39,881 nucleotides of DNA from an uncultured Saprospiraceae bacterium (GCA_964595615.1 CAZQTE010000004.1:1-39881), one strand, 5' to 3'; positions 1,000 through 36,459 are shown, counted from the first letter of the stretch. The notes: generated by a model from the letters alone, not told the origin. Program-made: numbers and translations.

Positions 1000-1051
1000 A
1001 ACTATGAACGGCGTCTTATCAAAACGCTTTACTGAGACGCCGTTCATAGTT
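1000..1051 (+). repeat. Hairpin element copy 2 (probable 3'-end structure between convergent genes)
   Basis: Perfect 17-bp arms 1000-1016 aactatgaacggcgtct and 1035-1051 agacgccgttcatagtt. It shares ctttactgagacg and gttcat with copy 1. Confidence 0.8.
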
Positions 1052-1100
1052 CATAGTTCATAGTTCATAGTTCATAGTTCATAGTTCATAGTTCATAGTT
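1043..1100. repeat. Tandem heptamer array TTCATAG x8.3
   Basis: Eight perfect consecutive TTCATAG units counted directly. The array overlaps the right hairpin arm and the last 4 codons plus stop of the rep-like gene. Confidence 0.95.
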
Positions 1101-2174
1101 ACTCCTAAATTCTTTTTCCAACAAACTCGTCCGCGAATTCGTATTCTTCTCATCCGCTTCTTTTTCTTCCACTCTTTTTATCATATCACTGATATAATCT
1201 GTCTCTTTTTGCCCTACTTCTTGACGATTATAATACTTTTTTAATAGCGAAAAAGCTGTGGTTTTATTGATACCAAATTCCACCAAACGCAAATAAGCTT
1301 TTACTTGTCCATTCGTTAGATTGAGTAGTGCTTTTTGAGCAAATGCCTTTCCGATATTATGTTCCTTTGTTAGTTTATCAAAAATTTCTTGCTGCTCTGT
1401 GTCGAAGATACCTGCGCGTTGTTCATCGAAAATATCGCGTTGCCCTGTTTCTCCGATTTGAGTGGCGCGGAGCTGTGGACGCAGGTCTAAAAGTACCTTT
1501 GGGCGCACATAAACCGTGAAACAAATATCCTTAATGTTCCTCCCCTGCTTTATTTTTTCAAATGAAAACCAAAAAGGTAAAATATCATTTTCTTCCAGTT
1601 CTTTTTGCGCGATTAATAATACAAAACGCTCAAAATCAAAAAAGCGCAAGTACTTTTCCTCTACCTGAAAATACTTTTTCAATTCATTCAAATCATGGTT
1701 AAAAGTAAACTCAATTTCTGAACTCTGCCCTTCTAAATGACTTTGAAACAAACGGATAATCTTGGCGGTAAACTTGGATTTATACGGTCGTAAATCTTCT
1801 AATAATTGCGCGTGTGGCAATCCTTGATTACGCATAAAATACTCGACAACACGTGGGGTAAATTGCGCATGTATGTGTCCTGCTTTTACTTCTAAATGCC
1901 CCAACCAATTTACGCGCACAAAATCCTGATTATCAGCACTTTCTATGCGTAAAGGGTTTTGATTTAAGTGAATAAAGATTTGATTGATAGGTTCGTGAAT
2001 GTTCGACCATTTTTCACCTGGGGTATTGTTGATAAAACGTAATAAATCATCTGCGTTGACCACAATCTCAGCGGAAGGATTTGCTTTATCGATGAGCGCT
2101 GCGAGGGCGTACACGGTTTGGCGTGCACGTAGATTTATGGACTGTCCGTCGAGTATGTTTTTTTGTTTTGACAA
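1086..2174 (-). CDS. Rep_3/RepB-family replication initiator-like protein
   Basis: 362-aa ORF. The segment YKSKFTAKIIRLFQ...ELKKYFQVEEKYLRFFDFERFVLLIAQKELEENDILPFWFSFEKIKQGRNIKDICFTV matches the typical layout of Rep_3 winged-helix initiators (Y..F.dF..rVl..A..Ein..t.l....e.iK.GR.i..i.F.v). Judged by eye only. Confidence 0.65.
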   Translation of the reverse strand: MSKQKNILDGQSINLRARQTVYALAALIDKANPSAEIVVNADDLLRFINNTPGEKWSNIHEPINQIFIHLNQNPLRIESADNQDFVRVNWLGHLEVKAGHIHAQFTPRVVEYFMRNQGLPHAQLLEDLRPYKSKFTAKIIRLFQSHLEGQSSEIEFTFNHDLNELKKYFQVEEKYLRFFDFERFVLLIAQKELEENDILPFWFSFEKIKQGRNIKDICFTVYVRPKVLLDLRPQLRATQIGETGQRDIFDEQRAGIFDTEQQEIFDKLTKEHNIGKAFAQKALLNLTNGQVKAYLRLVEFGINKTTAFSLLKKYYNRQEVGQKETDYISDMIKRVEEKEADEKNTNSRTSLLEKEFRSNYEL

Positions 2175-2180
2175 GGAGAA

Positions 2181-2213
2181 AAGTTGTAAAGTTGTAGGGG
2201 GTGTAGAGTTGTA
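2181..2213. repeat. Octamer-periodic array AAGTTGTA-like x4 just upstream of the rep start
   Basis: Units are aagttgta, aagttgta, gggggtgta, gagttgta. The array starts 7 nt from the ATG at 2174 (minus strand). Confidence 0.7.
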
Positions 2214-2276
2214 AAGTGCGTAAATTTACGTGATTTTTTTGAAAAGACGAAAAAGGTGGGAATTGTTCTCGTTTTT

Positions 2277-2373
2277 AAGTATCACGGTCGTTCCACGCCG
2301 TGACCATCCACTCAAACTTCGTTTGAGTGCTAATTTATTTTTGCACACACGGCGTGGAACGACCGTGATACTT
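2277..2373. repeat. 26-bp perfect inverted repeat with nested 9-bp hairpin
   Basis: Arm 2277-2302 aagtatcacggtcgttccacgccgtg is the exact reverse complement of 2348-2373. The inner stem is cactcaaac (2309-2317) / gtttgagtg (2321-2329). The right arm abuts the crtY stop codon. Confidence 0.9.
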
Positions 2374-3525
2374 TTAACGTGCGGGATTCATCGTGCTGAG
2401 CATAGCACGGAAAAAAGGGAAAATTTGCATGGTGCTCATTATCTTGATTTCCTCTGGGAAAGAGGTTTCTTCTGACATAAACTTTAATACTTGAGACGGT
2501 TTATTATTTTCAAATAAAGTCCCAAATACCTCTGGCGGTGGCACACGATGATGTTGTAAGACATTCAAAAAAATACGGTCTAACCAAGCCGAACGCCTTT
2601 GTCTAATCGTCTTTTTCACATACGGACTACCCGTTTTTTCCAACTGCGCTACCATTTTCTGTAAATGCTTTTGCAAATAACAAAATGTATATCCAGAGGA
2701 AGCTTTCGTATTGCCACCAGCAGTACCGATATTGACGATATTTTTATTGCCAGCAGAAAATTTAAAATCCGTCATTGGAATAACACCAAACTCTTCATGT
2801 GTGACTTCATACTCTCCTATTCCCGGCAAAAATTCTTGGATGTAATCTGTGATAATGCGGTCGTATTCCTCTGATTGTAGTAAATCTGGAGAGAAAAGAG
2901 TCGCTTCAATTAAAGCTTCATTTTCGCTGGTTGGCAAGACATAAACAAAGCGTGTCTCGCCCTGATGTGGTACTCGAAAATCCATAAGTGTAGCCTTATC
3001 AGGGCTAAAAAACGGCTCTTTTGTACGAATCGTCCAACCTTTAAAGTGCTGGTCTAAATAATGATTTTCTTTTTTATTTATCTTTTCAAATCGAATGCTA
3101 TTGAAGCAAAAATCTGCGGTATAGCTATTTTCGGCTGTAGTTACTAACACTCCTGAGTCCGTATTCACAACTTTCTGGACGTTTTCCACAGACTTATCCA
3201 CATTTGGGCGACTTATCAACATTTCTTTCCCGTATTGATAAAAATCAATACCACGAATCATCTTATATGTATAAGGTTCGATGTTAAGTGTTTGTGAAAA
3301 ATCAGGTGTATGAAAATCCAAATGTTGCCAACGGTGATGCACTAAAAACTCAAAAGGGCTTTTTTCTCGCTCCCAAAAACACCACGTCCGGTCATTTTCT
3401 AATTTTTCGGACTTGTCTATGATTAATATTCGCTTATCTCGCAAAGAAGATTGCTGTAGGAAGTGTACCAAACTGATACCTGCCAAACCGCCGCCAGCGA
3501 TGATATAATCATAATGTCTCTTCAT
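2374..3525 (-). CDS. crtY: Lycopene beta-cyclase (CrtY family)
   Basis: 383 aa. N-terminal FAD fold DYIIAGGGLAGISL. Length fits the lycopene cyclase family, and it lies in an operon position after crtI-crtB. Confidence 0.75.
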   Translation of the reverse strand: MKRHYDYIIAGGGLAGISLVHFLQQSSLRDKRILIIDKSEKLENDRTWCFWEREKSPFEFLVHHRWQHLDFHTPDFSQTLNIEPYTYKMIRGIDFYQYGKEMLISRPNVDKSVENVQKVVNTDSGVLVTTAENSYTADFCFNSIRFEKINKKENHYLDQHFKGWTIRTKEPFFSPDKATLMDFRVPHQGETRFVYVLPTSENEALIEATLFSPDLLQSEEYDRIITDYIQEFLPGIGEYEVTHEEFGVIPMTDFKFSAGNKNIVNIGTAGGNTKASSGYTFCYLQKHLQKMVAQLEKTGSPYVKKTIRQRRSAWLDRIFLNVLQHHRVPPPEVFGTLFENNKPSQVLKFMSEETSFPEEIKIMSTMQIFPFFRAMLSTMNPAR

Positions 3526-3526
3526 T

Positions 3527-3554
3527 AGTTGGAAGTTGTTAGTTGGTAGTTGGT
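3527..3554. repeat. Heptamer array AGTTGGN x4
   Basis: Units agttgga, agttgtt, agttggt, agttggt lie between the crtB stop and the crtY start. Confidence 0.8.
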
Positions 3555-3582
3555 AGCCAAGCGCGACTTGTACTACTCACTT

Positions 3583-4419
3583 CTACAACAAATTTAACTG
3601 ATGCCTCACCGCGGTGCTGAAAAGTAGCGTCACTTTACGACCATTTGGTACTCTGATGCGCTCTTCTTTTACGTGTGCAGCGGTTGCTTTTTTGATTTTA
3701 GCAAACAGTTTTGTGTAATAAACATAAGCTAACATCACGCCTAATCTTGCGCCTGTTGGCAACTTAATAATACCTTGATAAGCATCATCAAAATCTTTTT
3801 TGATGTCGGCTTCGATAGTGATTTTATCCTCATTGGTGAAATTCACAAAATCTACTCCAGGGAAGTAAACACGTCCACGCTCATCAAAATCACTCTTCAT
3901 ATCACGCAAGAAATTTATTTTCTGAAAAGCAGAACCTAAACTGCAAGCCGGTGCTTTTAGACGTTCATATTGTTCTGTATCTCCATTCGTAAATACGCGC
4001 AAACACATCAGACCAACAACCTCTGCCGATCCGTAAATATACTGCTTATACAGACTATCGTGGTAGCGTTCGTGATATAAATCCATTTCCATACTATCCA
4101 AAAATGCATCAATCAACTCGCGTTCGATACCATATTCATGCACTACTGCTTGAAAAGAATGTAAAACAGGATTTAAGCTGATTTTTTCCTTGATAGCCGT
4201 GTAGGTATCTTCACGAAAACGGCGTAATAATTCGCCCTTTTCATAGCCATGAAAGGTATCTACTATCTCATCGGCAAAACGCACAAAACCATAAATTCCA
4301 TAGATAGGCATCTGATATTTAGAGTCAAATACCTTGATTCCCATAGAGAAAGAAGTACTGTAACGATTAGTAATTAATTTACTGCATTCATTGCAAACGT
4401 CGTTGTATAAGGAGAGCAT
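3583..4419 (-). CDS. crtB: Phytoene synthase
   Basis: 278 aa of the squalene/phytoene synthase family. Motifs YGFVRFADEIVD (Asp-rich motif 1 region) and FLRDMKSDFDERGRVYFP. Confidence 0.85.
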   Translation of the reverse strand: MLSLYNDVCNECSKLITNRYSTSFSMGIKVFDSKYQMPIYGIYGFVRFADEIVDTFHGYEKGELLRRFREDTYTAIKEKISLNPVLHSFQAVVHEYGIERELIDAFLDSMEMDLYHERYHDSLYKQYIYGSAEVVGLMCLRVFTNGDTEQYERLKAPACSLGSAFQKINFLRDMKSDFDERGRVYFPGVDFVNFTNEDKITIEADIKKDFDDAYQGIIKLPTGARLGVMLAYVYYTKLFAKIKKATAAHVKEERIRVPNGRKVTLLFSTAVRHQLNLL

Positions 4420-4435
4420 AATATTTTTTTTGTTT

Positions 4436-5944: not shown

Positions 5945-6071
5945 GTCTTTTATTTTAGTTCTTGCTTATTCATTAAGCAGTTCTGTTTAACTTTCAAGGT
6001 AATTTGTTTAACAGAGATTCACAAAATATGTTGAAGTATAGTATTGTGAAATGAGTATGATATTAAAAACA

Positions 6072-6104
6072 AAGCCCTCTCGGATACTAAATCCGAGAGG
6101 GCTT
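6072..6104 (-). terminator. Intrinsic terminator after the rhodanese gene
   Basis: 14-bp stem aagccctctcggat / atccgagagggctt with a 5-nt loop. On the minus strand it is followed by tttgttttt. Confidence 0.75.
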
Positions 6105-6133
6105 CACCTCTTTTACTGCCTTAAATTAATCTA

Positions 6134-6526: not shown

Positions 6527-6539
6527 TTTGAAAAAATTT

Positions 6540-6581
6540 TAGACTTTAGATATTGGACCTTAGATATTAGACTTTAGACAA
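6540..6581. repeat. Heptamer array TAGAYNT x6
   Basis: Units tagactt, tagatat, tggacct, tagatat, tagactt, tagacaa in strict 7-nt register. The array overlaps the HIT stop codon. Confidence 0.85.
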
Positions 6582-6969: not shown

Positions 6970-6972
6970 AGT

Positions 6973-13154: not shown

Positions 13155-13193
13155 AGCTCCGAGTTTTAAAAAATTTCTAGTTATATTTTTAGA

Positions 13194-13259
13194 GATGTTA
13201 GATTTTAGATGTTAGACTTCAATTTAGTAATTATAGCCTAACATCTAAAATCTAAAATC
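13194..13259. repeat. Inverted heptamer arrays forming a 22-bp stem hairpin
   Basis: Arms 13194-13215 gatgttagattttagatgttag and 13238-13259 ctaacatctaaaatctaaaatc pair at 21/22 positions. It lies between the TBDT-like stop and the 1348-aa start. Confidence 0.85.
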
Positions 13260-13276
13260 TTATCAAGGTGTCCTTC

Positions 13277-16200
13277 TTAGAAGTCTACTCTTGCACCGAT
13301 GTACAATCTGCGCGGTAAGCTCAAAAAGTTCGGATTTAATAAACGCCATTGGTAAGATGCCAAATAGCTTGCTGGATTTGCTCCTGCGGCAATGTTTGTC
13401 TGCGCTTGGTCTGTTTCTAAGAAACCATCAGTAAACGGTGAACCTGTAGCAGAGTAAACTTGGATAATATTAGCCGTATTTAATAAGTTAGCTACACGGA
13501 AGTAAACGTTCAAGTTTAATCCATTGCTTCCTTCTTTCGCTTGACGTAGAGCAAAGTCTTTGTCTACACGGAAGTTTACAGTATTTCTCCAAGGCAAACG
13601 TGAACCATTCAATCCACCTTTTGTCTGACTTCCTGATAAAACCTCAGGTGTTGTAGTAGCAGTATATGGGCGACCAGATACAGCAACTACTTGGATGTTT
13701 GCACCTGCATTAGCAAAAATTTGCTTACCAAATAATTCAGGTCCATTGTATTTTTTACCAGAAGCGTAACGATAATCCAAGTTAAGATTAACTCGGTGAC
13801 GCTCATCAAATGATAATGGATACAATGCACGTAATACTTCACGAGATCCTAAACCACGAGAAGAGTTGGCGTCAGAACCTGTACCGTCTGCAAATTGTAA
13901 TGTGTAAGACGCATTCAATGAAACGTTTCCTGTTCTACGCAAGTCATATTGGAAAGAGAAACCTTTAACAGTACCAAAATCCAAGTTGTCATAAGTATAG
14001 TAATTCGTAATTGCTTCAATATTTTGGTAAATACGAATCTGAATCATGTCTCTCAACTCTTTGTAGTATGCTGCAATTTTCAATGCAGAACTGTTACTAA
14101 TTTTCTGTTGGAAACCAACCTCATAATCAATCGTTTTCTCTGGTCTCAAGTTTGCGTTCGCTTTTGGGCTGTTCGCAGTAAGATTACGACTATCAAAGTT
14201 TAAGTACTCATAAGGACTTGCCACGTTATTAGTTGGTGGACGTTGAACTAAGATATCGTAGTGCGCAAAGAAGTTTGCATCCTCGTTAATCGGGAATGAG
14301 AATGCGATACGAGGCATAAGGTTAACTTGTGGCTTGTAATCTTCAAAAGACGTGTTAATATCAAAGTTTTCATCTCTGATATTTGAGTCAGGGTCTACTC
14401 TCTTTCCGGGTGCGATAGTACCACCAAAAATCTCTGTTGGACTATTTGCTTGTACACCTGAAGGGAAGAACCAAGTATCTCCGTCACGGTATGCTCTCAC
14501 TGAAGTACCTTCTTGAGAGTCTACATAAACGGCAAAGTCGTCTCCAATTGTACTAGGGCTAGCAATACCAAATTTCTCTTGGAAAGAGCTTGCTGTTTCT
14601 AACTCATATAAAGAGTATGGATCTTTTAATACTTTCGTATTAGCATCATAACTATCTACACGTAAACCCGCACGGATAATAATATCTCTAAATTTGAATT
14701 TATCTTGGATGTATGCAGCAGTATAAGTAGGACGGAAAGGTGCAACTGGACGTGTTAAGTTTCCTGCTTCATCTTTTCTTGTAAAGAAGTCCTCAAATGT
14801 ACCATTAAAGTCATTACCTAAGTAATCATATCCGTAGTAGTCAAAACCTAGTCTCGACTCTGTATTTAACTCAGCAGCAGTAAACATTTCTAAGGCCAAC
14901 TGGTCTGGCGTTAAAGCGTCCGTGTTTACGTTTGTAAATCTGTCTACGCCTAAAGACTCTCTGATATTTTCAAAGAAATTATCATTTCCTAATACACCAC
15001 CACCAGCTCCATATAATTGAACAGGAGTCCAACCAGGAACAGGCTCGTTTGATACGTCAGTAAAATCTGCAGGATTAACATAAACTTCATTAAGGGGATT
15101 GCTCGTATCAACACCGTCAAAACCAACGTTTGCTTGTTGTCTTGCTACTGTCCACAATTCACGAGGTGACATTTCATAAGAGCGGTTTGTTCTTTGCTCA
15201 TATAGTAAACCTATTTCGATACTGTGCTTCCCTTTCTCTGATCCGCCTGGCAATAAATCAAAACTAGCATTTACTTGTCCCGTTAATGTTTGTTCATCTC
15301 TAATATTGTAAAAGTTATATACTGTACCTACATTAGTATGAAAATTATAACTATCAGTAAATAAATCTGAAGTACGTCCATTTAATGCTGGATCACCAAG
15401 ACCTGGTTGGTTATAATTTGCTAAAACAGGGTTAATATCACCTGCGACAAATCCACCTTCTCCTGGCTCTTGACGATAACCTTGGTGCTCGATTACTTGG
15501 TTACCAAATTCGTCAATAATTACATTACCTGCGTCATCACGAGCAAGTCCAATCTCAGGTTCGTATGTCGCATCAAAAGAACCAACATAACCATAGTTAA
15601 ATAGATTTTCACCATGTCTTGGATCTCCTAGCTTATAATCAAACTGCTCTAAACCTGCTTGAATAGTATAAGACGCATTACGGATAGCATTTCCTTTGGC
15701 AGCTTTAGCATCGTCTGCATTAGCTGTACCTTCAGATGATTTACCTAAACGGTGACGGAAACGGAAGTTTCCACGGTAACGTTTCTCATCTGTAAAAGGA
15801 TTATTATGCGCATTTAATAAACGCCAGTTTGCCGCTGTTGCACTTGCTTCCCCTGGAGTAAAAAAGTCGATTTCACCAGAATAAGTACCAGTTACTGCAA
15901 CATCAATAGCATCACTCAAACGTGCATCAATTTTTGCAGTTAAATCTAAACGTTCATTTTGTTCAAATGGCTGAATGTCTAAAACATCAACATCTTCTTC
16001 TGTCAAAAAATCAGCGGTAGGACCTCCTACATAAGTAGGTGTTTCTTCCAATCTTGCTAAAGCCTCATCATTAATACGGAAAATATCTACAGCAGATGGA
16101 TCATCATCTTCTAAGTATCTGTACTGACCTGAAATACGATACCCCAATAAAGCATTACCCTCTTTATTTTTAATGATAGGACCGTTCAAGTAAGCAGATG

Positions 16201-22355: not shown

Positions 22356-22513
22356 TTAGACTTTGGACGAAAGATTTTAGATATTAGATTACTGAACAGT
22401 AATATTAATGTAATGCGTATTTCTTTGATTATCAATGTTTTTAAAAGTCGAAAGATTGATTTTTCGCTTGAATAGTCTAACATCTAAAGTCTAATATCTT
22501 TTGTCCAAAGTCC
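22356..22513. mobile_element. MITE-like 158-bp element with imperfect terminal inverted repeats and 10-bp flanking direct repeats
   Basis: Left end gactttggacgaaagat and the reverse complement of the right end gactttggacaaaagat match at 16/17 positions. aatcctattt occurs at 22346-22355 and again at 22514-22523. Confidence 0.6.
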
Positions 22514-22534
22514 AATCCTATTTATAAGTTGAAC

Positions 22535-23550: not shown

Positions 23551-23646
23551 AAGAGTTGTAGAGTTGAGAGGTTGTGGGTTGTGAGGTCGGTGAACAAGAT
23601 AGAATGGTAATCTCAGAACCCGCAACCTCACAACTCTGCAACTCTT
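23551..23646. repeat. GGTTGNG-type inverted arrays (35-bp imperfect stem)
   Basis: Arms 23551-23585 aagagttgtagagttgagaggttgtgggttgtgag and 23612-23646 ctcagaacccgcaacctcacaactctgcaactctt pair at 31/35 positions. The element overlaps the first base of the stop codon of the LysM-CAP gene. Confidence 0.85.
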
Positions 23647-28300: not shown

Positions 28301-30441
28301 TAGACGGAGAGCACGTGACAAATATAGTCCTTCAACGCGGTACGAATGGAGGTATTTACCTTGGTACGCGCCGTACAGTTTACTACCGCAATCGCGATAT
28401 GACCGACTGGGCTTTATACAGCAATAGTCTGCCTGCATATACTTACTCCACGAAATTAATTCCGTTTTACGGTGGAAATAAGTTGCGTAATGGAACAAGT
28501 CGTTCTGTTTGGGAAGTCGATTTATTTGAAACATCTTCTACCCTCGCCCAGATTTCTGCTGATAAATTAGACGTTTATTGTGCGCGTGAACCTGTGCAAT
28601 TTTATGACCGTTCTGCGGCATTGACAGGCGCGACTTATGCATGGTCTTTTCCAGGTGCAACACCTGCGACATCAACGGACCGCAACCCAAGCGTTGTTTT
28701 TGGTGCAGAAGGTACTTATGATGTGACCCTAACAGTCACCGACGCAAATGGAACGGATACACAGACATTATCTGATTTCATTACGGTTCATCCTTCTGAT
28801 TGTACGCCAGAGAATGTTCCAGACATGGCATTGAGTCCTGGTACTACGGGTTACGTTAATCTTGGTAGACCAGATGATTTAGATTTTAACGGAACCGAGA
28901 GTTTTACTTTTGCAGCATGGATTAAACCTTCGGTTGACAATATGGACGGTTATATCATTTCCAAATTTGACCGTTATGTTACAGGGCAATATTTCTTAGG
29001 TATTGAAGGTGGAAAATTAGTTGTGCATAGAGAAGTTTCACCTTGGGATGCTGTGTCAACGACGAGTTTAGTTGCCGGCGAATGGTATCATGCTGTTGGA
29101 ACTTATGACGGCAGTCAATTGAAAGTTTATCTCAATGGAGAATTGGAAAGCACCGTTAACATGACTGGTAGCATCAATAGTATTGGTCGTGATATTTTGA
29201 TTGGTGCGCGTTATAAAAGTGGTGCAATTGATGACCTTTTTCAAGGAACAATTGACGAGGTAGAATTTTGGAAACGCGCCTTGACACAAGACGAAATCAG
29301 ACAGATGCGACACCTGACTTTAGACCAAGTTTCGGATGCAGATTTAATGGGTTATTTCCAATTTAATGAAGATGGAACGACGGTCTATGACCGCGGACAA
29401 TTCAATAATGGCATAATGAACGGCGATGCCACGCGTAGTACTTCTACTGCGCCTGTCGGAGGTGGAGAAAGTTTTAAAATGGATATTACAACAGGCGGTG
29501 AAAAGATTTTCACTGATACTGATTTGACCTTAACTTTTCCTGCAAGCGGCACATATCCTGACGGGGAATTAGTCGCGACACGCATCGATTTAAATCCTGA
29601 CCAATTACCAAACGCAATGCCTACAGGCGATACTTATTGGGTCATCAACAACTACGGCAACAATGCGATTTTCGACGCCTTAGAGAGCATTAAATTTGCT
29701 GGTATTGAAGTTGCTGGCGGTCAAGATGCTTCTGAGTTTAAACTCTACAAACGCGAGTCTAATGATGATTTGGCAACTTGGGGTACTTCGATTGATTTTG
29801 CGGATGCAGTGACAGCTGGGGCGAGTGGCGATGTTACTTTTAGTACCGATAATGGTATCACAAGTTTTAGCCAATTTGTGGTTGTAGATGAAAGCACAGT
29901 TCTGCCTGTTGAATGGTTGTATTTCCGTGCTGCTCTGACAGAAAAAGGGCAAGTTCAATTAGATTGGGCGACAATGAATGAGCAAAACAATAAAGAGTTT
30001 GAGGTCGAACGGAGTTCTAATGGAGAAGACTTTGAAGTGATTGGAAGAGTACCTGCACAAGCTTCGATTTCAAATACTTTGACTTATCAAATCTTTGACG
30101 AAAAACCATTGCGCGGTAAATCTTACTATCGTTTGCGCCAAGTGGATTTGGACGGTACTGCTCAGTTTTCAGAAGTACGTACCATTATCTTTGAGGCATT
30201 GCCAAATCACTTCGCCATCTTCCCTAATCCTATCGCAACAAATGAAGATTTACAAATTGTCAGTGATTTGAATGAAGATTTAAAAGTTCAAGTTTATAAT
30301 GCAAAAGGTCGCTTGGTGATTAGTACGACTATCGCTGGTGGTATTGGTTCTGTCTCGATGCGCGGACTTTCGAGTGGTGCTTATTTGTATAAAATTATTG
30401 GAAGTGAGAAGATGAAAATGGGGAAAGTGGTGGTGGAGTAA
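25399..30441 (+). CDS. Giant T9SS cargo: BNR/sortilin-like beta-propeller repeats with two LamG (concanavalin-like) insertions, PKD domain, T9SS C-terminal sorting domain
   Basis: 1680 aa with a signal peptide. At least nine S/T-x-D-x-G-x-T/S-W BNR motifs (YKSTDYGLNW, YKTTDAGVSW, YKSTDSGLTW, YKSTDAGETW, YYSDDGGLNW and others). LamG-like blocks ending VRIWSTVLD and VEFWKRALTQDEI. PKD signature FGAEGTYDVTLTVTDANG. CTD IFPNPI...GAYLYKI...GKVVVE. Confidence 0.85.
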   Translation: MKASHLLLMATLVFCSFSLSAQHQETKYNTSDNATLPDWVQLMYSNEADPGEVKTLYEEYYLAHDFIKNQHTQYYKHWMRNISRDVNGLFWNDGSIDKTKVLNNEAKYLERRALTKSTAVTGTDWECIGPVDYDHDAAGRSYAPGAGHVYTIEQSASDANTMWAGTASAGVYKSTDYGLNWLPVTDDLPLTSCRALEIDHTDANTVYFSAKGDLYKTTDAGVSWTVVGNATFNADDRYANDIVMHPTQNNVLFVCADNGLFRTSDSGANFTQLKGGEWQELEFHPTNNTIVYAVKKEGEHTEFYKSTDSGLTWVMKGNGWPGISSSSSTTFNALENAGASSDYVSFASNPNLGEGANADFTIELRIKSTGWSGDPSIISNKNWASGANAGFVVAANGSGWKFNIGDGSNRIDLNGNTINDNEWHHIAISYDQDGTKTLYQNGTQVSSSNDILTNSTATALDLALFQDGTLNYGFGLNAQVSDVRIWSTVLDAATIASNVCSTVDNTHSNYTDLLHYWKVDENTGTTITDSKGSNNGTTNGSNTWTANNPMTCNIINLGADEHQRRTEIAVSPADPNLVIAHASGAVNGGSGLFGIYKSTDAGETWTFNCCGPQPGGAASTTNPNMMGYADNGDSDGGQYYYDMAMDISKTNADHISVAGIQRWETLDGGATWDCPAKWSHPHKATYIHADIHDLRYLANGDIWVACDGGIYYSDDNGASFTRRMYGIAGTDFWGFGAGFQDGDVMVGGTYHNSTMIKDGDTYINGWISTAIGGAGGDNVRGFVNPAKEKTVYMDAGKRVLTGDRNTNFSNYSFAQQTNASYVTGASSDMLFHPNNPNIIYTATENALWKTEDDGGTFSMIHDFGEQIVAMDICFSNPDAMYVSTYPGWWDQKNLYKTIDAGATWTQLTLPFSGSLWAPLDVVVDAENPLNVWIARTPQSGGYNSLDGEKVYYSDDGGLNWTNWTTSILDGEHVTNIVLQRGTNGGIYLGTRRTVYYRNRDMTDWALYSNSLPAYTYSTKLIPFYGGNKLRNGTSRSVWEVDLFETSSTLAQISADKLDVYCAREPVQFYDRSAALTGATYAWSFPGATPATSTDRNPSVVFGAEGTYDVTLTVTDANGTDTQTLSDFITVHPSDCTPENVPDMALSPGTTGYVNLGRPDDLDFNGTESFTFAAWIKPSVDNMDGYIISKFDRYVTGQYFLGIEGGKLVVHREVSPWDAVSTTSLVAGEWYHAVGTYDGSQLKVYLNGELESTVNMTGSINSIGRDILIGARYKSGAIDDLFQGTIDEVEFWKRALTQDEIRQMRHLTLDQVSDADLMGYFQFNEDGTTVYDRGQFNNGIMNGDATRSTSTAPVGGGESFKMDITTGGEKIFTDTDLTLTFPASGTYPDGELVATRIDLNPDQLPNAMPTGDTYWVINNYGNNAIFDALESIKFAGIEVAGGQDASEFKLYKRESNDDLATWGTSIDFADAVTAGASGDVTFSTDNGITSFSQFVVVDESTVLPVEWLYFRAALTEKGQVQLDWATMNEQNNKEFEVERSSNGEDFEVIGRVPAQASISNTLTYQIFDEKPLRGKSYYRLRQVDLDGTAQFSEVRTIIFEALPNHFAIFPNPIATNEDLQIVSDLNEDLKVQVYNAKGRLVISTTIAGGIGSVSMRGLSSGAYLYKIIGSEKMKMGKVVVE

Positions 30442-30442
30442 A

Positions 30443-30564
30443 GGGTTGAGTGGTTGAGGGTTATGGGTTGTGAGGTTTTAAAAATATTGCCTTTCTTTGC
30501 GACAGGAATGCGAGTTAAGGTAATTTATTGAACTCACAACCCGCAACCTCACAACCTCTTAACC
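30443..30564. repeat. GGTTGNG-type inverted arrays, same family as 23551-23646
   Basis: Left arm 30443-30474 gggttgagtggttgagggttatgggttgtgag. Right arm 30533-30564 ctcacaacccgcaacctcacaacctcttaacc. The right arm shares aacccgcaacctcacaac (18/18) with the other copy. Confidence 0.8.
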
Positions 30565-31262: not shown

Positions 31263-31266
31263 GAAA

Positions 31267-31309
31267 AGATATTAGATGTTAGACTTTCTTTGTCTAACAT
31301 CTAATATCT
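31267..31309. terminator. Perfect 18-bp hairpin made of TAGAYNT heptamers; bidirectional terminator candidate between convergent genes
   Basis: Stem agatattagatgttagac (31267-31284) / gtctaacatctaatatct (31292-31309) with loop tttcttt. Heptamer register continues to about 31326. Confidence 0.75.
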
Positions 31310-31331
31310 AAAGTCTAATATCTTTCAGAAC

Positions 31332-32171: not shown

Positions 32172-32233
32172 TATATTATTTTTTTGTTACAGTAAATAAC
32201 TGTTTTTCGGTTTTGGAATATGTTCTATGGAAT

Positions 32234-32268
32234 AAGATTTTAGACAAAAGATATTAGATATTAGACTT
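32234..32268. repeat. Heptamer array TAGAYNT-type x5
   Basis: Units aagattt, tagacaa, aagatat, tagatat, tagactt in strict register. Confidence 0.85.
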
Positions 32269-32470
32269 TCATTTCTTAGCTATTACCATTTTTATCTAAA
32301 ACTGAAGCGTCTGTATAATCTACAAATCGCGCACAAAGGTACGATTAAACGGATAAAGTCAAACTTCAAGTATGTTTTTAAGAAAAAAGCTGTCGTTTTT
32401 CTCCTATTAATAAAAAATACCATGCGAAATCCTTGCCAGCTAAAACTATTGTCTTTTCTAAGTCAAAGGC

Positions 32471-32893
32471 ATGTACTACATTTTTAGGAAAACAAAAAAG
32501 CATATACATTTGTCCTATCAAGTGAGACAATTTATTACTGCCATATTACTTTCGGTTATCTGCTTGTTAAGTTTTCAAGACTTAACAAAATTTGTCTTAT
32601 TTAAAGCAAATCAAACTGCTATTGCGGCTAAATTTTGTGTCAATAAGAATGACAAAGTCTATACCTGTAATGGTAAATGCCACTTGTCTAAAATCATTGC
32701 ACAAAGTAAGGATAGCAATTCATCTGAAATGCCAATGCCTGAAACGGAGCGTCTAAATTTCGTTTATCTTATTGGGAATGAACAACTTAGCTCATTCATC
32801 TTAAAAAATAGCTTCCTTAAACCTATTTTTACAAATAGTAATTTGTTAAATTCTTCTCATCTCTTCAAATTATTACGTCCACCAATTGGATAG
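32471..32893 (+). CDS. Hypothetical membrane protein with Cys/His motif (FCVNKNDKVYTCNGKCHL)
   Basis: 140-aa ORF with one predicted TM helix (FITAILLSVICLLSF). AT-rich, and the start codon is uncertain. Confidence 0.5.
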   Translation: MYYIFRKTKKHIHLSYQVRQFITAILLSVICLLSFQDLTKFVLFKANQTAIAAKFCVNKNDKVYTCNGKCHLSKIIAQSKDSNSSEMPMPETERLNFVYLIGNEQLSSFILKNSFLKPIFTNSNLLNSSHLFKLLRPPIG

Positions 32894-32939
32894 TGTCTTG
32901 ACAATTACATTCATTACATTTTTATCGAAATAAATCAAT

Positions 32940-33092
32940 ATGCAACAAACTAAGTATTTGTTGTGTGCGCTATTATTAACATTCGCGCCACAACAAGTAT
33001 TGGCTTGTGATGCGTGTGGCTGTTCTGCTACAGGAAACGGTATCGGTTTATATGACGGAAAAGCTTGGTACGCTAATGCAGGTTTGCAATAG
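32940..33092 (+). pseudogene. Small secreted ORF with CDACGC cysteine cluster, terminated by a stop created at a MITE-like insertion junction
   Basis: Not in the supplied ORF track (below 60 aa). My translation: MQQTKYLLCALLLTFAPQQVLACDACGCSATGNGIGLYDGKAWYANAGLQ, then TAG made of t33090 plus ag of the element. An open frame resumes at 33252-33371 and ends in ...YRINTSLAFLF. Confidence 0.4.
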
Positions 33093-33249
33093 ACTTTATG
33101 AATGAGGTTGAGTGCGATTTAAACGCCGATATTTTGTTCTTAGTTTAATTTTAAAAGAAGGATAGTTGTTAATACTTTGACTGATTTTAAAAATAAAATA
33201 GGGACAAAAGAGCAAGTTTAAAGCCGCTCAAATCTCATTCATAAAGTCT
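33091..33249. mobile_element. MITE-like 159-bp element with 16-bp perfect terminal inverted repeats
   Basis: The left end agactttatgaatgag equals the reverse complement of the right end ctcattcataaagtct. The arms continue imperfectly to tttaaac. Flanking duplication is either AAT (33088-90 / 33250-52) or TA (33090-91 / 33249-50). Confidence 0.6.
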
Positions 33250-33403
33250 AATACACTAAAAATAATATTGTTTTCGGCATACAAGGCTATTTGCCTTTAC
33301 AACAAAATTATGCTAAAAACACAACAGAAAATCTCTACCGTATCAATACGAGTTTAGCTTTTCTGTTTTGATAAATAAATCACTCTTACTGAATGGGCAA
33401 TTT

Positions 33404-33451
33404 GAGACATTAGACTTATAAAACATATAGTCTAATATCTTAGACGGAGTC
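33404..33451. repeat. TAGAC-type heptamer/hairpin patch upstream of the His-rich lipoprotein gene
   Basis: Sequence gagacat tagactt ataaaac atatagt ctaatat cttagac. Includes the palindrome attagac...gtctaat. Confidence 0.6.
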
Positions 33452-33469
33452 TTTCAAAATTAACAATCA

Positions 33470-34216
33470 ATGAAAAATTTTCTTTTTCTTTCTATTTTAT
33501 TCTTGGGTTTAGGTTTGACATCTTGTAAAGATGATGAAATGCATGACCACAATGATGACGCAGATTATAAGGTAACAGTCACTATCGAAAGCCCAACGGC
33601 AGATGCAGAAGTAACTATGGGCGAACCTATGGAAGTTGCAGTAAAATTTGTACACGACGAAGGTAAAACTGTACACAATGTAAAAATCGAAGTGCAAGAT
33701 GCTGACGGCAATAGCGTCATGGTCTTAGATGAAGGTCACAAACACGAAGAAAGCGGCACTTACACTTACCAAGCATCTGATTGGACGCCAACAGAGCACG
33801 GAACTTACACTTTGTATGCTGAAACAAGCAACGATGCTGGCGAGGCAACAAAATCTGCAACAGCTTCATTTACAGTAGCACACGAAATATCTGATGAATA
33901 CCCTGTGACGGTGACTATCGTTTCTCCAGAAACTGGCTCGACGAATACAGTTAGCGAAGCGGTTCATATCCATATCACAATGGTGCATAACCACTCAGAA
34001 ACTATCCACAATGCAAAGGTAGAGGTAAAAGATGCAGACGGCAATGTTGTTATGACAATGTTGGACGACCACGTGCATGATGAAGACGGTAACTATGAGT
34101 TCCATAGTATGGATTTCGTACCTTCGGCAGCTGGTACATACTCTGTTCACGCAGAGACGACTAATCATGATGGTGCATTGCCTCAGCATGCACATGCGGA
34201 CTTTACGGTGCAATAA
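33470..34216 (+). CDS. Tandem-duplicated His-rich lipoprotein (two Ig-like repeats), putative metal-binding
   Basis: 248 aa. Lipobox LGLTSC. Two ~105-aa repeats share VTVTI.SP, VH(D/N)...T(V/I)HN.K(I/V)EV.DADGN.VM, (GHKHEE/HVHDED)G.Y, GTY...AET.N and A.FTV. Confidence 0.6.
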   Translation: MKNFLFLSILFLGLGLTSCKDDEMHDHNDDADYKVTVTIESPTADAEVTMGEPMEVAVKFVHDEGKTVHNVKIEVQDADGNSVMVLDEGHKHEESGTYTYQASDWTPTEHGTYTLYAETSNDAGEATKSATASFTVAHEISDEYPVTVTIVSPETGSTNTVSEAVHIHITMVHNHSETIHNAKVEVKDADGNVVMTMLDDHVHDEDGNYEFHSMDFVPSAAGTYSVHAETTNHDGALPQHAHADFTVQ

Positions 34217-34268
34217 AATGGAAGTATGAATGAATTCTAAGCAATTCATGTTTTATATTTCAAAAAAA

Positions 34269-34310
34269 GGGATTTTCTGAGTCGTTGCTCGGAAAATCCC
34301 TTTGTTTTGT
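34269..34310 (+). terminator. Intrinsic terminator
   Basis: 13-bp stem gggattttctgag / ctcggaaaatccc with a 6-nt loop, followed by tttgttttgt. Confidence 0.85.
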
Positions 34311-34380
34311 CGTGTTTTGTGGAATTGGGATTAGAATTATTTGATATTTGAATATTCCTTAAAATTAAAAAAAATCAACA

Positions 34381-34695
34381 ATGTTAATTTCAAATATCAA
34401 TACAGTTCCAGACAGAGAAATCGTAGAAGTTTTAGACATCGCACGTGGTAGTACGGTGCGGGCGCGTAATATCGGGCGAGACATCTTCGCAGGTTTGAAA
34501 AACTTGGTGGGTGGTGAAATCTCTGAATATACTAAACTCATGGCTGATGCGCGTGAGCAAGCACTAAATAGAATGATTGCAGATGCGGAAAGTCTGGGCG
34601 CAGATGCGGTGATTAATGTGCGCTTTACGACGGCTATGGTAATGCAAGGGTGCTCGGAGATATTGGCTTATGGGACGGCGGTGCGGTTGCGGTAG
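34381..34695 (+). CDS. YbjQ/UPF0145-family (putative heavy-metal-binding domain) protein
   Basis: 104 aa. Motifs GSTVRARNIGRDIFAGLKNLVGGEI..Y and GADAVINVRF are typical of the YbjQ family. Confidence 0.85.
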   Translation: MLISNINTVPDREIVEVLDIARGSTVRARNIGRDIFAGLKNLVGGEISEYTKLMADAREQALNRMIADAESLGADAVINVRFTTAMVMQGCSEILAYGTAVRLR

Positions 34696-34797
34696 GTGGG
34701 TTTTATTGATTATTGTTATCTTTATTTTTTGAAGTGGATTATGAATGTGTCGAAAGACGTATTGATGTGAATCGTTAGGTGCAAGAAAAAAGAAAAA

Positions 34798-35613
34798 ATG
34801 AAAAAGCGTATTTCAAAAATAGAAAATGATGTTCAAGACAGAAGTTCCATAGCTTGGAAAAAATTATGTGAATATATCAACGAAATTGCGGAAAATGGTT
34901 CAGATGAATTTGTACCAAGAGAAGCACTTGGAAATGAATTATTCGCTGAAATCCATACACTTCCCGAATCAATTTCTAAGTTGAAAAAAGTTACAAAAAT
35001 TGGATTATATGGAAGTCAACTAAAAAGAATACCTCCCGAAATTGGGCAAATGGAATCTCTTGAATATTTTGACCCTTATACATCATATAAACTAAATTGG
35101 TTTCCTTACGAAATCATGGATTGCAAAAAATTAAAAGACAGTCGAATAAGTACAAGAGCTTTATTGGGGAATTATAAAAATAGAATGGGCTTTCCAAGAC
35201 TCGACCACAATCCAGTAAGGTATTTTGGAGAAACTTTAAATTGTAGTATCTGCAAAAAAGAAATGACTTATGAAGAAACAAATCAATTGTGGATAACACT
35301 TAGAACAGGAACAGATACAATCCCACTTCTCGCAAATCTTTGTTCAAAAGAGTGTGAAGAACAACTTCCACAACCTCCTGAGAATTACGTACAACATGCA
35401 CATAAGGGTGGGGCAAATTTAGTTCAACCACCTGATGAAGATGAAATTTGGGAGATGAGAATGGCTGAGCGAGAAAAGAAAAAAGAAGAAGAAAAACGAA
35501 ATAATCCAAATGGAAATAAACAAGAAGAAAATAAGATTTCAGAACCTCAGAAGAAAATTAATTGGTCAAATTTAAAACCGCTTAAATTGATAAGAAAAAT
35601 TTGGGAAAAATAA
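34798..35613 (+). CDS. Leucine-rich-repeat protein with CxxC...CxxxC zinc-ribbon-like segment and Lys/Glu-rich tail
   Basis: 271 aa. LRR units LPESISKLKKVTKIGLYGSQLKRIPPEIGQMESLEYFD. Cys pairs CSICKK...CSKEC. Noticeably more AT-rich than its neighbours by eye. Confidence 0.6.
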   Translation: MKKRISKIENDVQDRSSIAWKKLCEYINEIAENGSDEFVPREALGNELFAEIHTLPESISKLKKVTKIGLYGSQLKRIPPEIGQMESLEYFDPYTSYKLNWFPYEIMDCKKLKDSRISTRALLGNYKNRMGFPRLDHNPVRYFGETLNCSICKKEMTYEETNQLWITLRTGTDTIPLLANLCSKECEEQLPQPPENYVQHAHKGGANLVQPPDEDEIWEMRMAEREKKKEEEKRNNPNGNKQEENKISEPQKKINWSNLKPLKLIRKIWEK

Positions 35614-35699
35614 ATCCTGCACCTAAACAACGTGTATGGCGTTCATTGCCAGCAAAATCTGGCAATGCCGCATACACAAAACCATTAAACAAACAAACC

Positions 35700-36176
35700 A
35701 TGACAAAAAAAGACCAAACTTTCATGAAACGCGCCATCCAATTAGCCGAAAAAGGCATGGACTCCAACGCAGGAGGTCCATTTGGCTGCGTCATAGTCAA
35801 AGACGATAAAATCATCGCAGAGGGCTTTAACCGCGTCACCTCTACCAATGACCCGACGGCACACGCGGAGGTCGTCGCGATTAGAGAAGCTTGTCGAAAA
35901 TTAGGGTCTTTTCAATTAGATGATTGTATCATTTATACTTCCTGTGAGCCATGTCCGATGTGTTTTGGGGCGATTTATTGGGCGCGTCCTAAAATGGTGT
36001 ATTTTGCTTGTGATAAGAAAGATGCTGCCAAAATTAACTTTGATGACCAGTTTATTTATGATGAATTGGAGAAGGACTTTGAGGATAGAGACATCAAATT
36101 TGTCAGACTATCAAGAAAAGATGCAGTGCCTGTTTTTGATAAGTGGGCGGCGAAAGTAGATAAGACGAAGTATTGA
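35700..36176 (+). CDS. guaD: Guanine deaminase (CDA-fold, GuaD-type)
   Basis: Start taken at the ATG at 35700 (MTKKDQTFMKRAI). Zinc motifs HAEVVAIREA and SCEPCPMCFGAIYWARP. By memory, length and sequence closely resemble Bacillus subtilis GuaD. Confidence 0.8.
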   Translation: MTKKDQTFMKRAIQLAEKGMDSNAGGPFGCVIVKDDKIIAEGFNRVTSTNDPTAHAEVVAIREACRKLGSFQLDDCIIYTSCEPCPMCFGAIYWARPKMVYFACDKKDAAKINFDDQFIYDELEKDFEDRDIKFVRLSRKDAVPVFDKWAAKVDKTKY

Positions 36177-36459
36177 TAATGAAGATATTAGATTACCATT
36201 CTAAGGAATGCGAAAATAATAGATTCTGAATCTATTAATCTCACATTCCTAACTCGTTTATTAAGGGTTTTCTCATAAAAATATTTTAGTTTAGGTCTGA
36301 AAAGTCAAAATCACCAAAACGGATTTTCATGAAATATCCCTTTTTGTTGTTATCCTTTTTGTTATTATTAAACTAAAGAATAAACACCTGACCCAACCAT
36401 TCACTAAAAGAAGGCTGTCTAATAAGTAAAGTTTCATATTTCAGCATAAAATTAGCAAA

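Follow-up and report, generated by a model that had tools for sequence, protein, structure and literature searches.

Heptamer-type tandem arrays and long hairpins between the genes of a Saprospiraceae bacterium

What are the short tandem arrays found between the genes of an uncultured Saprospiraceae bacterium, and do they have a function? We analysed a window of 39,881 nt (the whole stretch of DNA), in which 13 of the 24 intergenic gaps hold period-7 or period-8 tandem arrays; the initial annotation was thus correct in counting at least ten. A lag-autocorrelation scan found eight period-7 segments in the intergenic DNA of the window (5.6 kb) and not one in its coding DNA (34.3 kb). Each remaining period from 4 to 12 gave zero to two segments, and 100 shuffles of the intergenic sequence that preserved dinucleotides gave a mean of 0.11 segments per period (maximum 1). 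With this excess over both shuffled and neighbouring-period controls, the heptamer periodicity that the initial annotation had described is real. Tandem Repeats Finder (TRF), with de-duplicated rows and ORF-based gene calls, returned 10 period-7 arrays, three period-8 arrays and one period-14 array in the intergenic DNA of the window and no arrays of these periods in its coding DNA (Table 1).

These intergenic arrays are built from 7- to 8-nt units, and a few unit families are reused at many sites: TTAGAYN in seven gaps, GGTTGNG, a mixture of 7- and 8-nt units, in two, and GTTCATA in two, plus TAGTTGG and AAAGTTGT. The motif AGATATTAGAYNTTAGAY, with up to two mismatches allowed, has 15 matches in the window, every one of them intergenic, where 0.04 are expected. 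The pair 22356-22395 / 22475-22513 was missed by TRF at a score of 30 and confirmed by motif search and folding; 33404-33446 and 36182-36195, with about two units per arm or array, were identified solely by family resemblance. The earlier impression of an absence from coding DNA holds within genes but not at their ends, since three arrays touch or provide the last codons or the stop of a gene, namely the Rep-like gene (1086-1100, whose last four codons and TGA stop are array sequence), the HIT gene (6574-6579) and the LysM gene (23646). The arrays are therefore not strictly extragenic.

Judged by sequence, the source taxon is Saprospiraceae, and the CrtI protein of the window is 92% identical to one from a Saprospiraceae MAG. 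Contigs often break at arrays. An assembly artefact was rejected, as independent assemblies from other samples, 99.7-100% identical to the window, have the same copy numbers; among the arrays covered by these assemblies, one carries a single substitution, and the loop of one hairpin differs. Because these strain variants of the window show no copy-number change, slippage is not fast here.

Table 1. Arrays and array hairpins of the window, with TRF calls (period in brackets) and the basis of each assignment
Feature	Position	Strand	Location	TRF call	Basis
GTTCATA x2.4, direct	120-136	+	52 nt 5' of methyltransferase start (189)	120-136 (7)	TRF, lag scan, sequence
Hairpin 998-1053 (arms GAACTATGAAC-GGCGTCT / AGACGCC-GTTCATAGTTC) running into GTTCATA, 8.4 perfect copies (1042-1100)	998-1100	.	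methyltransferase/Rep-like convergent gap	1042-1100 (7)	TRF, fold (dG -34.6, z -6.7), translation
AAAGTTGT 8-mer x4.6; no G on mRNA-sense (minus) strand	2180-2217	.	5 nt 5' of Rep-like ORF start	2180-2217 (8)	TRF
TAGTTGG x4.4 (mRNA sense CCAACTA); unstructured as RNA	3526-3556	-	crtB-crtY gap, adjoins crtY ATG at 3525	3526-3556 (7)	TRF, fold (z -1.6)
TTAGAYN x6, direct-only, 14-nt super-period; unstructured	6538-6581	-	HIT-rhodanese gap; overlaps HIT stop codon, ends 12 nt ahead of rhodanese ATG	6538-6579 (7 and 14)	TRF, fold (z +1.9)
Inverted TTAGAYN arrays 13190-13217 / 13236-13262; stem ~25 bp	13190-13262	-	between TonB-dependent-receptor-like gene and 1348-aa gene	13193-13216 (7), 13238-13260 (7)	fold (dG -34.5, z -9.2)
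Inverted TTAGAYN/TTGGAC arrays 22356-22395 / 22475-22515; loop ~80 nt	22356-22515	.	convergent gap		fold (dG -41.4, z -5.3), motif search
Inverted GAGTTGN/GGTTGNG arrays 23551-23585 / 23612-23646; single-nt mismatch at each unit's degenerate position	23551-23646	-	begins at LysM stop	23552-23575 (8)	fold (dG -45.9, z -8.0)
Inverted GGTTGNG arrays 30442-30475 / 30533-30564	30442-30564	+	begins one base past TAA of 1680-aa T9SS protein gene	30442-30470 (7), 30533-30558 (8)	fold (dG -55.2, z -7.5)
TTAGAYN hairpin plus two extra units; 18-bp stem, 7-nt loop	31266-31326	.	FkbM/DUF6089 convergent gap	31293-31323 (7)	fold (z -6.0 to -6.2)
Direct TTAGAYN array; G-poor in mRNA sense	32234-32268	-	DUF6089 5' leader, 3' of conserved TAnnTTTG-like -7 box (32334-32341)	32249-32265 (7)	TRF, fold (z about +1)
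Short hairpin, ~two TTAGAYN units per arm; weak	33404-33446	+	24 nt 5' of ATG 33470		fold (z -3.7)
Two TTAGAYN units (AAGATATTAGATTA)	36182-36195	+	6 nt past deaminase stop		sequence; below detection thresholds

The phenomenon extends beyond the window to other Bacteroidota, related species included. Across 1.3 Mb of DNA drawn from 80 further Bacteroidota genomes or species, with genes taken from crude ORF calls, intergenic arrays set in abruptly at period 7 (2, 2, 38, 33, 23, 21 and 24 arrays at periods 5, 6, 7, 8, 9, 10 and 14, respectively), period 8 being almost as frequent as period 7 and periods 9-11 occurring too. The arrays are widespread but patchy across the phylum, 44 of the 86 loci tallied being array-free.

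Paired inverted arrays forming long hairpins near gene ends had also been proposed, and they are well borne out. In the window, a search within 200 nt of each array found a reverse-complement partner for eight of the 14, while a reversed-sequence control gave 0 of 14; the corresponding figures for the Bacteroidota loci are 32 and 3 of 95. About a third to half of the arrays are inverted pairs folding into long stable hairpins. Six sites of the window are such pairs (folding z-scores -5.3 to -9.2), and direct arrays are unstructured as RNA. A positional bias is likewise evident, hairpin-type arrays being depleted in divergent, promoter-only gaps: these make up 23% of gap bases but contain 6 of the 85 arrays (p = 7e-5 counted by arm, or 0.005 after halving to allow for paired arms). 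Like intrinsic (Rho-independent) terminators, the array hairpins are stable structures directly 3' of stops, in the same gaps as the ordinary terminators of relatives; unlike the short, GC-rich stems of terminators, theirs measure 18-35 bp and are AU-rich, and a terminator scan of the window found a U-tract after one of the six, 31266-31326 (U-rich in minus sense). Five of the six array-hairpin gaps of the window have no other terminator-like site, and five of six gaps with an ordinary terminator have no array hairpin, counting hairpin 38071-38112, which we recognised from the sequence and which the scan did not list.

Comparison with relatives bears on the same question. The gap that in the window contains hairpin 13190-13262 contains an ordinary GC hairpin in an 84% relative (L005). 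Past the DUF6089 gene, where the window has 31266-31326, two further relatives (L217 and L218) have GC hairpins with T-tracts; in an 86% relative (L216), the FkbM gene directly adjoins the DUF6089 gene and a hairpin is absent. The suggestion that arrays shape transcript ends is supported indirectly by these ordinary hairpins at two gene ends, by the depletion in divergent gaps and by the compensatory changes described below. Against it stand the scarcity of U-tracts, the absence of a hairpin in L216, hairpin 22356-22515, which is an addition to a gap with two ordinary terminators already in place, the only such structures at this site in an 86% relative, and the lack of strand asymmetry: of 40 array hairpins from tandem gaps, 21 fold better as the sense strand and 19 as the antisense strand (Wilcoxon p = 0.78). 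Such equal folding means that there is no RNA-specific G-U signature, so that co-evolution of the arms could be DNA-level concerted evolution rather than selection. A role of the hairpins at 3' ends is plausible, if unproven.

At orthologous loci of relatives with 84-94% protein identity, arrays are missing or replaced, which indicates rapid turnover. The TAGTTGG array of the crtB-crtY gap is missing from three relatives (L005-L007). The HIT-rhodanese gap of a 92% relative (L003) measures 16 nt and has no array, and this genome still has AGTCTAA x3 and TTCATAT-type arrays elsewhere; the 84% relatives have different unit families (TACGATN, TCAACCG, GTTGAANN and GGTACNN). At the site of 30442-30564, a 94% relative has (ATAACCA)n, with eight copies in one sample (L213) and four in another (L214) between identical flanks. 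Copy number thus varies within a related species, in support of slippage, and it changes in one arm alone. The arms of two hairpins co-evolve: 31266-31326 (gap J) is kept in the 94% relative with a compensatory U-A to C-G change, and 23551-23646 (gap H) has a conserved position in the 86% relative, with five pairs changed on both sides.

Fast gain and loss of this kind would be expected of neutral or selfish by-products of slippage and fold-back copying without cellular function, which accumulate at any site where they are harmless and owe their biases of position and orientation solely to purifying selection against disrupted promoters, leaders and coding DNA. The hairpin added beside pre-existing terminators, hairpin stability without strand asymmetry, the patchy distribution and a leader orientation near baseline (see below) all speak for this explanation and give it appreciable weight, but we consider it rather unlikely. 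In gaps H and J the hairpin has kept its place from one species to another, with changes that preserve pairing. Two gene ends have no hairpin other than the array hairpin, where relatives have ordinary ones, and the same few unit families occur at many sites, which purely local slippage of random seeds would not predict.

Eukaryotic Foldback (FB) elements consist of long inverted arms of short tandem repeats with a variable middle, and are mobilised by a transposase with target-site duplications. Our inverted pairs share the arms of short tandem repeats around variable middle segments, but FB arms are far larger. That the pairs are MITE-like foldback transposable elements, with tandem-unit terminal inverted repeats and a transposase encoded elsewhere, seems to us very improbable, even though their loops are variable and unrelated, the same composite arm (TTAGACTTTGGAC) recurs as inverted pairs at sites of the window and of a related species that are not orthologous, presence varies between relatives, gap I of L213 contains nested inverted repeats, and contig breaks at arrays are frequent. 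By inspection, array boundaries have no conserved termini and no target-site duplications, and the window contains no transposase gene; arm length and unit order vary at every site, copy number changes in a single arm, and many arrays are direct-only. REP/BIME sequences of enterobacteria and pseudomonads, known to stabilise upstream mRNA, are also dispersed intergenic hairpin repeats of lineage-specific families, concentrated past genes and between convergent genes. A REP, however, is a single imperfect palindrome of 20-40 nt with a conserved sequence and a link to RAYT transposases, unlike the window arrays with their tandem 7-nt units, and no RAYT gene was seen in the window.

The initial annotation further reasoned that, 7 being coprime with 3, the arrays could combine all-frame translational stops with transcript-end structures. 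The arithmetic is true for TTAGAYN and GTTCATA, which close all three frames on both strands, but it fails for GGTTGTG and GGTTGCG, neither strand of which closes any frame, and for several families on the reverse strand (GGTTGAG, TAGTTGG and AAGTTGTA). At the Bacteroidota loci, all three frames are closed within 42 nt in 31% of the 3' flanks that have an array and in 14% of others (p = 0.006), and three genes get their stop codon from, or beside, an array. Yet 69% of array-bearing flanks leave some frame unclosed, C-termini and native stop codons are conserved with array-less relatives, and neither the near parity of period 8 with period 7 nor the occurrence of periods 9-11 fits the idea. Selection of the arrays for this purpose is scarcely credible, and as a general property all-frame closure is already largely refuted.

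Several arrays are located 5' of start codons instead of past stops. Among direct arrays within 30 nt of a start codon, the sense strand has more C than G in 32 versus 12; some 73-80% of leader arrays are in the G-poor orientation, against a baseline of 68% in ordinary Bacteroidota leaders, and this closeness to baseline points to tolerance, not to a dedicated function. TAACTGA repeats, too, often lie a few nucleotides 5' of start codons and favour one orientation; proteins of the S1, Csp or CsrA type have been proposed to bind them, and CspB is able to bind heptamer repeats with one protein per unit (MacGregor 2015, PMC4679880). The units might thus be binding sites of a lineage-specific nucleic-acid-binding protein, one unit per monomer, candidates being a cold-shock or S1-like OB-fold protein on RNA, a DNA-binding regulator or a nucleoid protein; this would give the arrays a regulatory role in translation, transcript fate or chromosome organisation. 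Each lineage does reuse its own few unit families at many sites, and direct arrays do stand immediately 5' of start codons in a preferred orientation. We nonetheless regard binding sites as improbable: our analysis turned up no candidate protein, the change of unit families between 84-92% relatives outpaces the normal drift of a binding specificity, one genome combines several unrelated families, the units have degenerate positions, and the orientation bias is that of leader composition in general.

With slightly better than even confidence, we lean towards a reading of the arrays as STRR-like families of long simple-sequence repeats (LSSR), grown by slippage and filtered by tolerance, in which the hairpin types probably act as transcript-end or mRNA-protecting structures, mostly without a U-tract. 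Replication slippage on units of at least 7 nt would lengthen and shorten the arrays, and units would mutate and then re-expand, giving composite arrays. Fold-back or template-switch copying from one arm to the other, or selection for pairing, may create inverted partners and keep them in register. Arrays would persist only at sites where the sequence is tolerated: hairpin types mainly 3' of genes, in the slot of ordinary terminator or 3'-stabiliser hairpins, and direct arrays at start codons when G-poor and unstructured, as Shine-Dalgarno-less Bacteroidota leaders would require.

The STRR1-3 units of cyanobacteria are CCCCAGT, TTGGTCA and CAACAGT, of which the window has no tandem copies. The likeness to STRR drawn in the initial annotation is apt, as both systems have tandem 7-nt units, several families per genome, many dispersed intergenic sites and common hairpins; the host phylum (Bacteroidota, here Saprospiraceae) and the AT-rich, degenerate units of mixed 7- and 8-nt length are different. 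[quoted passage not shown] No tandem TAACTGA occurs in the window, where the arrays are similarly intergenic heptamer direct repeats, often just 5' of start codons in a preferred orientation; TAACTGA repeats are essentially direct, with one indirect set, whereas the inverted pairs described here form hairpins at gene 3' ends. As summarised in PMC4679880, the commonest LSSR in most prokaryotic genomes is a heptanucleotide (Mrazek et al. 2007), and some genomes are enriched in LSSR whose units measure 5-11 nt, with polymerase slippage proposed as their origin (Mrazek, Guo and Shah 2007) and units that are not a multiple of 3 excluded from coding DNA. Our arrays agree with that summary in their prominent heptanucleotide class, short units and intergenic location; the sharp 7-nt lower bound, the inverted-pair architecture and the Bacteroidota distribution are observations of the present analysis. 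Together, the arrays belong to the known class of heptanucleotide repeats formed by STRR, LSSR and TAACTGA, and those of Saprospiraceae are a lineage-variable Bacteroidota counterpart of the cyanobacterial heptamer repeats.

The heptamer arrays are real and highly non-random. Tandem Repeats Finder (TRF) gives period 7 at nearly all the positions where the initial annotation had placed them, and period 8 at 2180-2217, 23552-23575 and 30533-30558; its de-duplicated intergenic rows comprise ten arrays of period 7, three of period 8 and one of period 14, and none of these 14 lies inside the 34 kb of coding DNA. A lag scan placed all eight of its period-7 segments in intergenic sequence, which totals 5.6 kb, and left the 34.3 kb of coding sequence free of them, with zero to two segments at each other period and about 0.1 per period in dinucleotide shuffles, so that the intergenic DNA of the window does carry an excess of period 7 over shuffled and neighbouring-period controls (8 against 0.11 expected). 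A motif of two and a half TTAGAYN units, with at most two mismatches, occurs 15 times against 0.04 expected, always between genes. Arrays occupy 13 of the 24 gaps, in line with the earlier count of at least ten, and their families recur over the 40-kb window (TTAGAYN in seven gaps, GGTTGNG in two and GTTCATA in two); those at 33404-33446 and 36182-36195, of about two units each, were identified by family resemblance alone. The remark that coding regions are spared was borne out, save that three arrays each reach into a gene's stop codon or last codons.

The window has a G+C content of 38% and 25 substantial ORFs, which include T9SS-sorted proteins, a PorP/SprF-like protein, crtI/crtB/crtY, greA, a HIT protein, a rhodanese and a sodium:solute symporter; it contains no tRNA gene and no Rfam match at the gathering threshold. 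Its CrtI is 92% identical to a protein from a Saprospiraceae metagenome-assembled genome, with named relatives mostly in Saprospiraceae or Lewinellaceae, and several independent metagenome assemblies contain stretches identical to the window, which together indicate that its source is an uncultured member of the Saprospiraceae (Bacteroidota) and not a one-off assembly product. An assembly artefact as the origin of the arrays was rejected as well, since they are seen again in separate assemblies of several samples. Two further features were recorded: a small ORF of 50 residues at 32940-33092 (plus strand), which begins like a signal peptide, contains a CDACGC motif (MQQTKYLLCALLLTFAPQQVLACDACGCSATGNGIGLYDGKAWYANAGLQ) and was likewise predicted as a gene in the independent assembly L208; and, at 37703-38010 between the VWA-domain and symporter genes, a nested palindrome of about 308 bp that is not built of heptamers, with outer arms of 38 nt (87% complementary) and inner arms of 94 nt (82% complementary) lying 11 nt apart.

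Two array architectures are present in the window, inverted array pairs and direct-only arrays.

Array architectures and their positions in the window
Architecture	Position	Folding
Inverted array pair	998-1100	Long hairpin
Inverted array pair	13190-13262	Long hairpin
Inverted array pair	22356-22515	Long hairpin
Inverted array pair	23551-23646	Long hairpin
Inverted array pair	30442-30564	Long hairpin
Inverted array pair	31266-31326	Long hairpin
Weaker inverted array pair	33404-33446	
Direct-only array	2180-2217	
Direct-only array	3526-3556	
Direct-only array	6538-6581	
Direct-only array	32234-32268	

The hairpins have RNA free energies of -26 to -55 kcal/mol, with z-scores of -5.3 to -9.2, and in the GGTTGNG stems the degenerate position of each unit appears as a periodic single-base mismatch. 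They do not fit the definition of an intrinsic terminator, a GC-rich stem-loop directly followed by a U-tract: five of the six fail a terminator scan, and the sole one followed by a U-rich tract is 31309-31267 on the minus strand. Ordinary terminators with a GC stem and a T-tract are also present, five found by the scan and a sixth hairpin, 38071-38112, recognised from sequence, and with one exception they and the array hairpins lie in separate gaps. Hairpin-type arrays are depleted from divergent gaps, where only promoters are expected: these make up 23% of gap bases but hold 6 of the 85 arrays. The inverted array hairpins tend to sit in the slot of a terminator or 3' hairpin. The last codons of the gene for the 1680-aa T9SS protein (GTGGTGGAGTAA in the window, GGTTGAGTAG in the 94% relative L213) resemble the GGTTGAG unit of the adjoining array (30427-30475 in the window, 3825-3860 in L213), and the 3' end of the gene itself may have been the seed of this array.

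Comparison of orthologous gaps, with relatives denoted by their protein identity to the window, revealed rapid turnover. In the window an array-bearing gap of 47 nt separates the HIT and rhodanese genes; the 92% relative has 16 nt and no array there, and the 84% relatives have 145 nt with an inverted GGTACNN pair. The 92% relative does possess AGTCTAA x3 and TTCATAT-type arrays at other sites, and the 84% relatives have further unit families (TACGATN, TCAACCG and GTTGAANN). Where the window has hairpin 13190-13262, an 84% relative has an ordinary GC hairpin instead. The 94% relative retains hairpin 31266-31326, which follows the DUF6089 gene, and differs from the window there by a compensatory change (U-A to C-G); the hairpin is missing from an 86% relative, whose two genes abut; relatives at 76-77% have GC hairpins with T-tracts after this gene. 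An 86% relative keeps hairpin 23551-23646 at the same site, with related but diverged units and five pairs changed on both sides, and lacks hairpin 22356-22515, having two ordinary terminators alone there; the latter hairpin is therefore a lineage-specific addition of about 250 nt. Inverted pairs of the composite TTAGACTTTGGAC occur both in the window and in a related species, at sites that are not orthologous. A gap of the 94% relative (L213, 3398-3824) displays inverted repeats nested like the layers of an onion, with outer TTATTGG/CCAATAA arrays, then TTGGACTTTGGAC arms, then a CCCCCTAACCCCCAGAATGGGGG palindrome.

The array hairpins may plausibly act at transcript ends. Sense and antisense folding energies of 40 array hairpins in tandem gaps are equal, so there is no RNA-specific signature and the co-evolution of the arms could reflect concerted evolution at the DNA level; for the same lack of strand asymmetry we dropped G-U pairs as an argument for RNA function. 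A purely neutral or selfish reading, in which the arrays do nothing for their host, is a strong rival. The initial proposal that the arrays close all reading frames stood for TTAGAYN and GTTCATA but failed for GGTTGTG, GGTTGCG and several reverse strands, and it does not hold as a general property: no more than 31% of the 3' flanks that bear an array have every frame closed within 42 nt.

The direct-only arrays are G-poor in the mRNA sense and are located directly upstream of start codons or within a 5' leader, and three of them (3526-3556, 6538-6581 and 32234-32268) fold to structure equal to or below that of shuffled sequence. Upstream of the DUF6089 gene, a block kept in the 86-94% relatives (32320-32382, minus strand) holds a Bacteroidetes-type -7 box (TACCTTTG, which fits TAnnTTTG), so that the 5' leader of this gene includes the array at 32234-32268. 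Among direct arrays at most 30 nt from a start codon, C exceeds G on the sense strand in 32 cases against 12, and ordinary Bacteroidota leaders already have a baseline of 68% for the G-poor sense orientation. We accordingly downgraded a dedicated leader function to a tolerance filter, and the best reading is that direct arrays are tolerated in leaders in the G-poor orientation only.

The 8-mer array at 2180-2217 lies upstream of an ORF (1086-2174, minus strand) with a Rep3_C (plasmid initiator WH2) domain and 24-30% identity to "replication initiation proteins" of Flammeovirgaceae, Chondrinema and Spirosoma plasmids; the GTTCATA x8 array at 1042-1100 supplies its stop codon. The stretch around this ORF might be part of a plasmid or of an integrated replicon. 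Plasmid iterons are direct repeats of about 17-22 bp that adjoin a Rep_3-family initiator gene, and we rejected them as an identity for the 8-mers on account of the 8-nt unit size and of the kinship with arrays elsewhere in the window. The neighbouring methyltransferase gene (189-992) has GTTCATA arrays on both sides (120-136 and 1042-1100) in the same orientation.

The pattern extends beyond the window. A survey of 80 loci (1.3 Mb) from other Bacteroidota species, with an encoded CrtI homologue as the sole selection criterion, found intergenic arrays of period 5 (2), 6 (2), 7 (38), 8 (33), 9 (23), 10 (21), 11 (14) and 14 (24), a spectrum with a sharp lower bound at 7 and no lone peak, declining slowly to period 11. 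In these loci, 32 of 95 arrays of period 7, 8 or 14 have an inverted partner within 200 nt, as compared with 3 of 95 in the control. Arrays were found in Pontibacter, Hymenobacter, Algoriphagus, Mucilaginibacter, Chitinophaga, Haliscomenobacter and other Saprospiraceae, with units particular to each, and the trait is patchy, 44 of 86 tallied loci having none and the window and its close relatives being among the richest. A metagenome scan with the TTAGAYN motif returned, among the matches listed, many composite arrays and array hairpins on contigs that mostly lack Shine-Dalgarno motifs, like Bacteroidota, with about ten resembling other phyla when taxonomy is approximated by Shine-Dalgarno motif frequency. 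Six contigs with TTAGAYN arrays (L158, L159, L161, L186, L187 and L198) have such motifs before most genes and a G+C content of up to 59%, which indicates that this unit family occurs also outside Bacteroidota-like genomes. Heptamer arrays are where some contigs break off, both in related genomes and in the population of the window itself (L005 at 13823-13864, and the ends of L211 and L006), so that in short-read metagenomes the arrays act as assembly breakpoints.

[quoted passage not shown] STRR1-3 consist of CCCCAGT, TTGGTCA and CAACAGT, none of which occurs in tandem in the window. The likeness to cyanobacterial STRR suggested initially is hence one of class, and with different units and a Saprospiraceae host, as opposed to heterocystous cyanobacteria, the arrays are an analogue of STRR rather than a strict member. 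REP/BIME units are conserved imperfect palindromes of 20-40 nt associated with a RAYT gene; the arms here are made of tandem 7-8-nt units of variable number and order, and no Y1-transposase domain was found among the window proteins, so we discarded this identity. MITEs and foldback transposons have fixed terminal inverted repeats, target-site duplications and clean filled/empty sites. Inspection by eye of three filled/empty sites disclosed no obvious target-site duplication and no fixed termini, and lends no support to a MITE-like origin. Contingency SSRs of phase variation vary in copy number among close strains within a promoter or reading frame, thereby switching expression. In the gap after the 1680-aa gene of the 94% relative, two samples differ in the copy number of (ATAACCA)n, eight against four, between identical flanks; the change affects one arm only and lies just past the stop codon, with some 400 nt left to the next start. 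Variants of the window that are 99.7-100% identical, from independent assemblies, have unchanged copy numbers in the arrays that these assemblies span.

In cyanobacteria, STRR have units of 7 bp, are able to fold into intergenic hairpins and may influence transcript stability or translational coupling (PMC2670836). The initial remark that no equivalent description was known for Bacteroidota needs qualifying, because TAACTGA direct repeats have been reported in five Bacteroidetes together with other heptamer repeats in the same intergenic regions (MacGregor 2015, PMC4679880). The window differs from that network in having TAACTGA as four single copies and no tandem pair, and a partial literature search turned up no paper that describes inverted heptamer arrays of Bacteroidota systematically. 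Heptanucleotides are reported to be the commonest LSSR of most prokaryotic genomes, for which polymerase slippage was proposed (Mrazek et al. 2007, as cited in PMC4679880). Altogether, the preferred reading is that the arrays are STRR-like repeat families which belong to a Saprospiraceae genome and are driven by slippage.

Some bacterial genomes have long been known to carry heptanucleotide tandem repeats, a trait without an explanation. Our results show that the heptamer architecture, inverted hairpin arrays included, is common yet patchy across Bacteroidota, that it turns over between close relatives and that in places arrays take the slot of the relatives' ordinary terminators. Filled and empty sites, an array versus a GC hairpin at one gene end and the 8-versus-4 copy polymorphism constitute natural comparison sets, and Hymenobacter, Pontibacter and Algoriphagus are culturable, array-rich genera in which function and origin can be tested. 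The arrays also matter for the annotation of metagenome-assembled genomes, as they break short-read assemblies and shift stop codons by a few residues. A more far-reaching proposal, which we regard as improbable, is that lineage-specific 7-8-nt arrays are modular cis-regulatory material of Bacteroidota, in which initiation is not led by Shine-Dalgarno motifs. A biased repeat-generating process, strictly limited to units of at least 7 nt, would supply the arrays and fold-back copying would keep their arms paired; inverted arrays would act as U-tract-independent terminators or 3' mRNA stabilisers able to replace ordinary terminators, and G-poor direct arrays would provide translation leaders free of structure. 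If this were true, the arrays would not be junk but a phylum-wide, fast-evolving layer of control over the ends and starts of genes.
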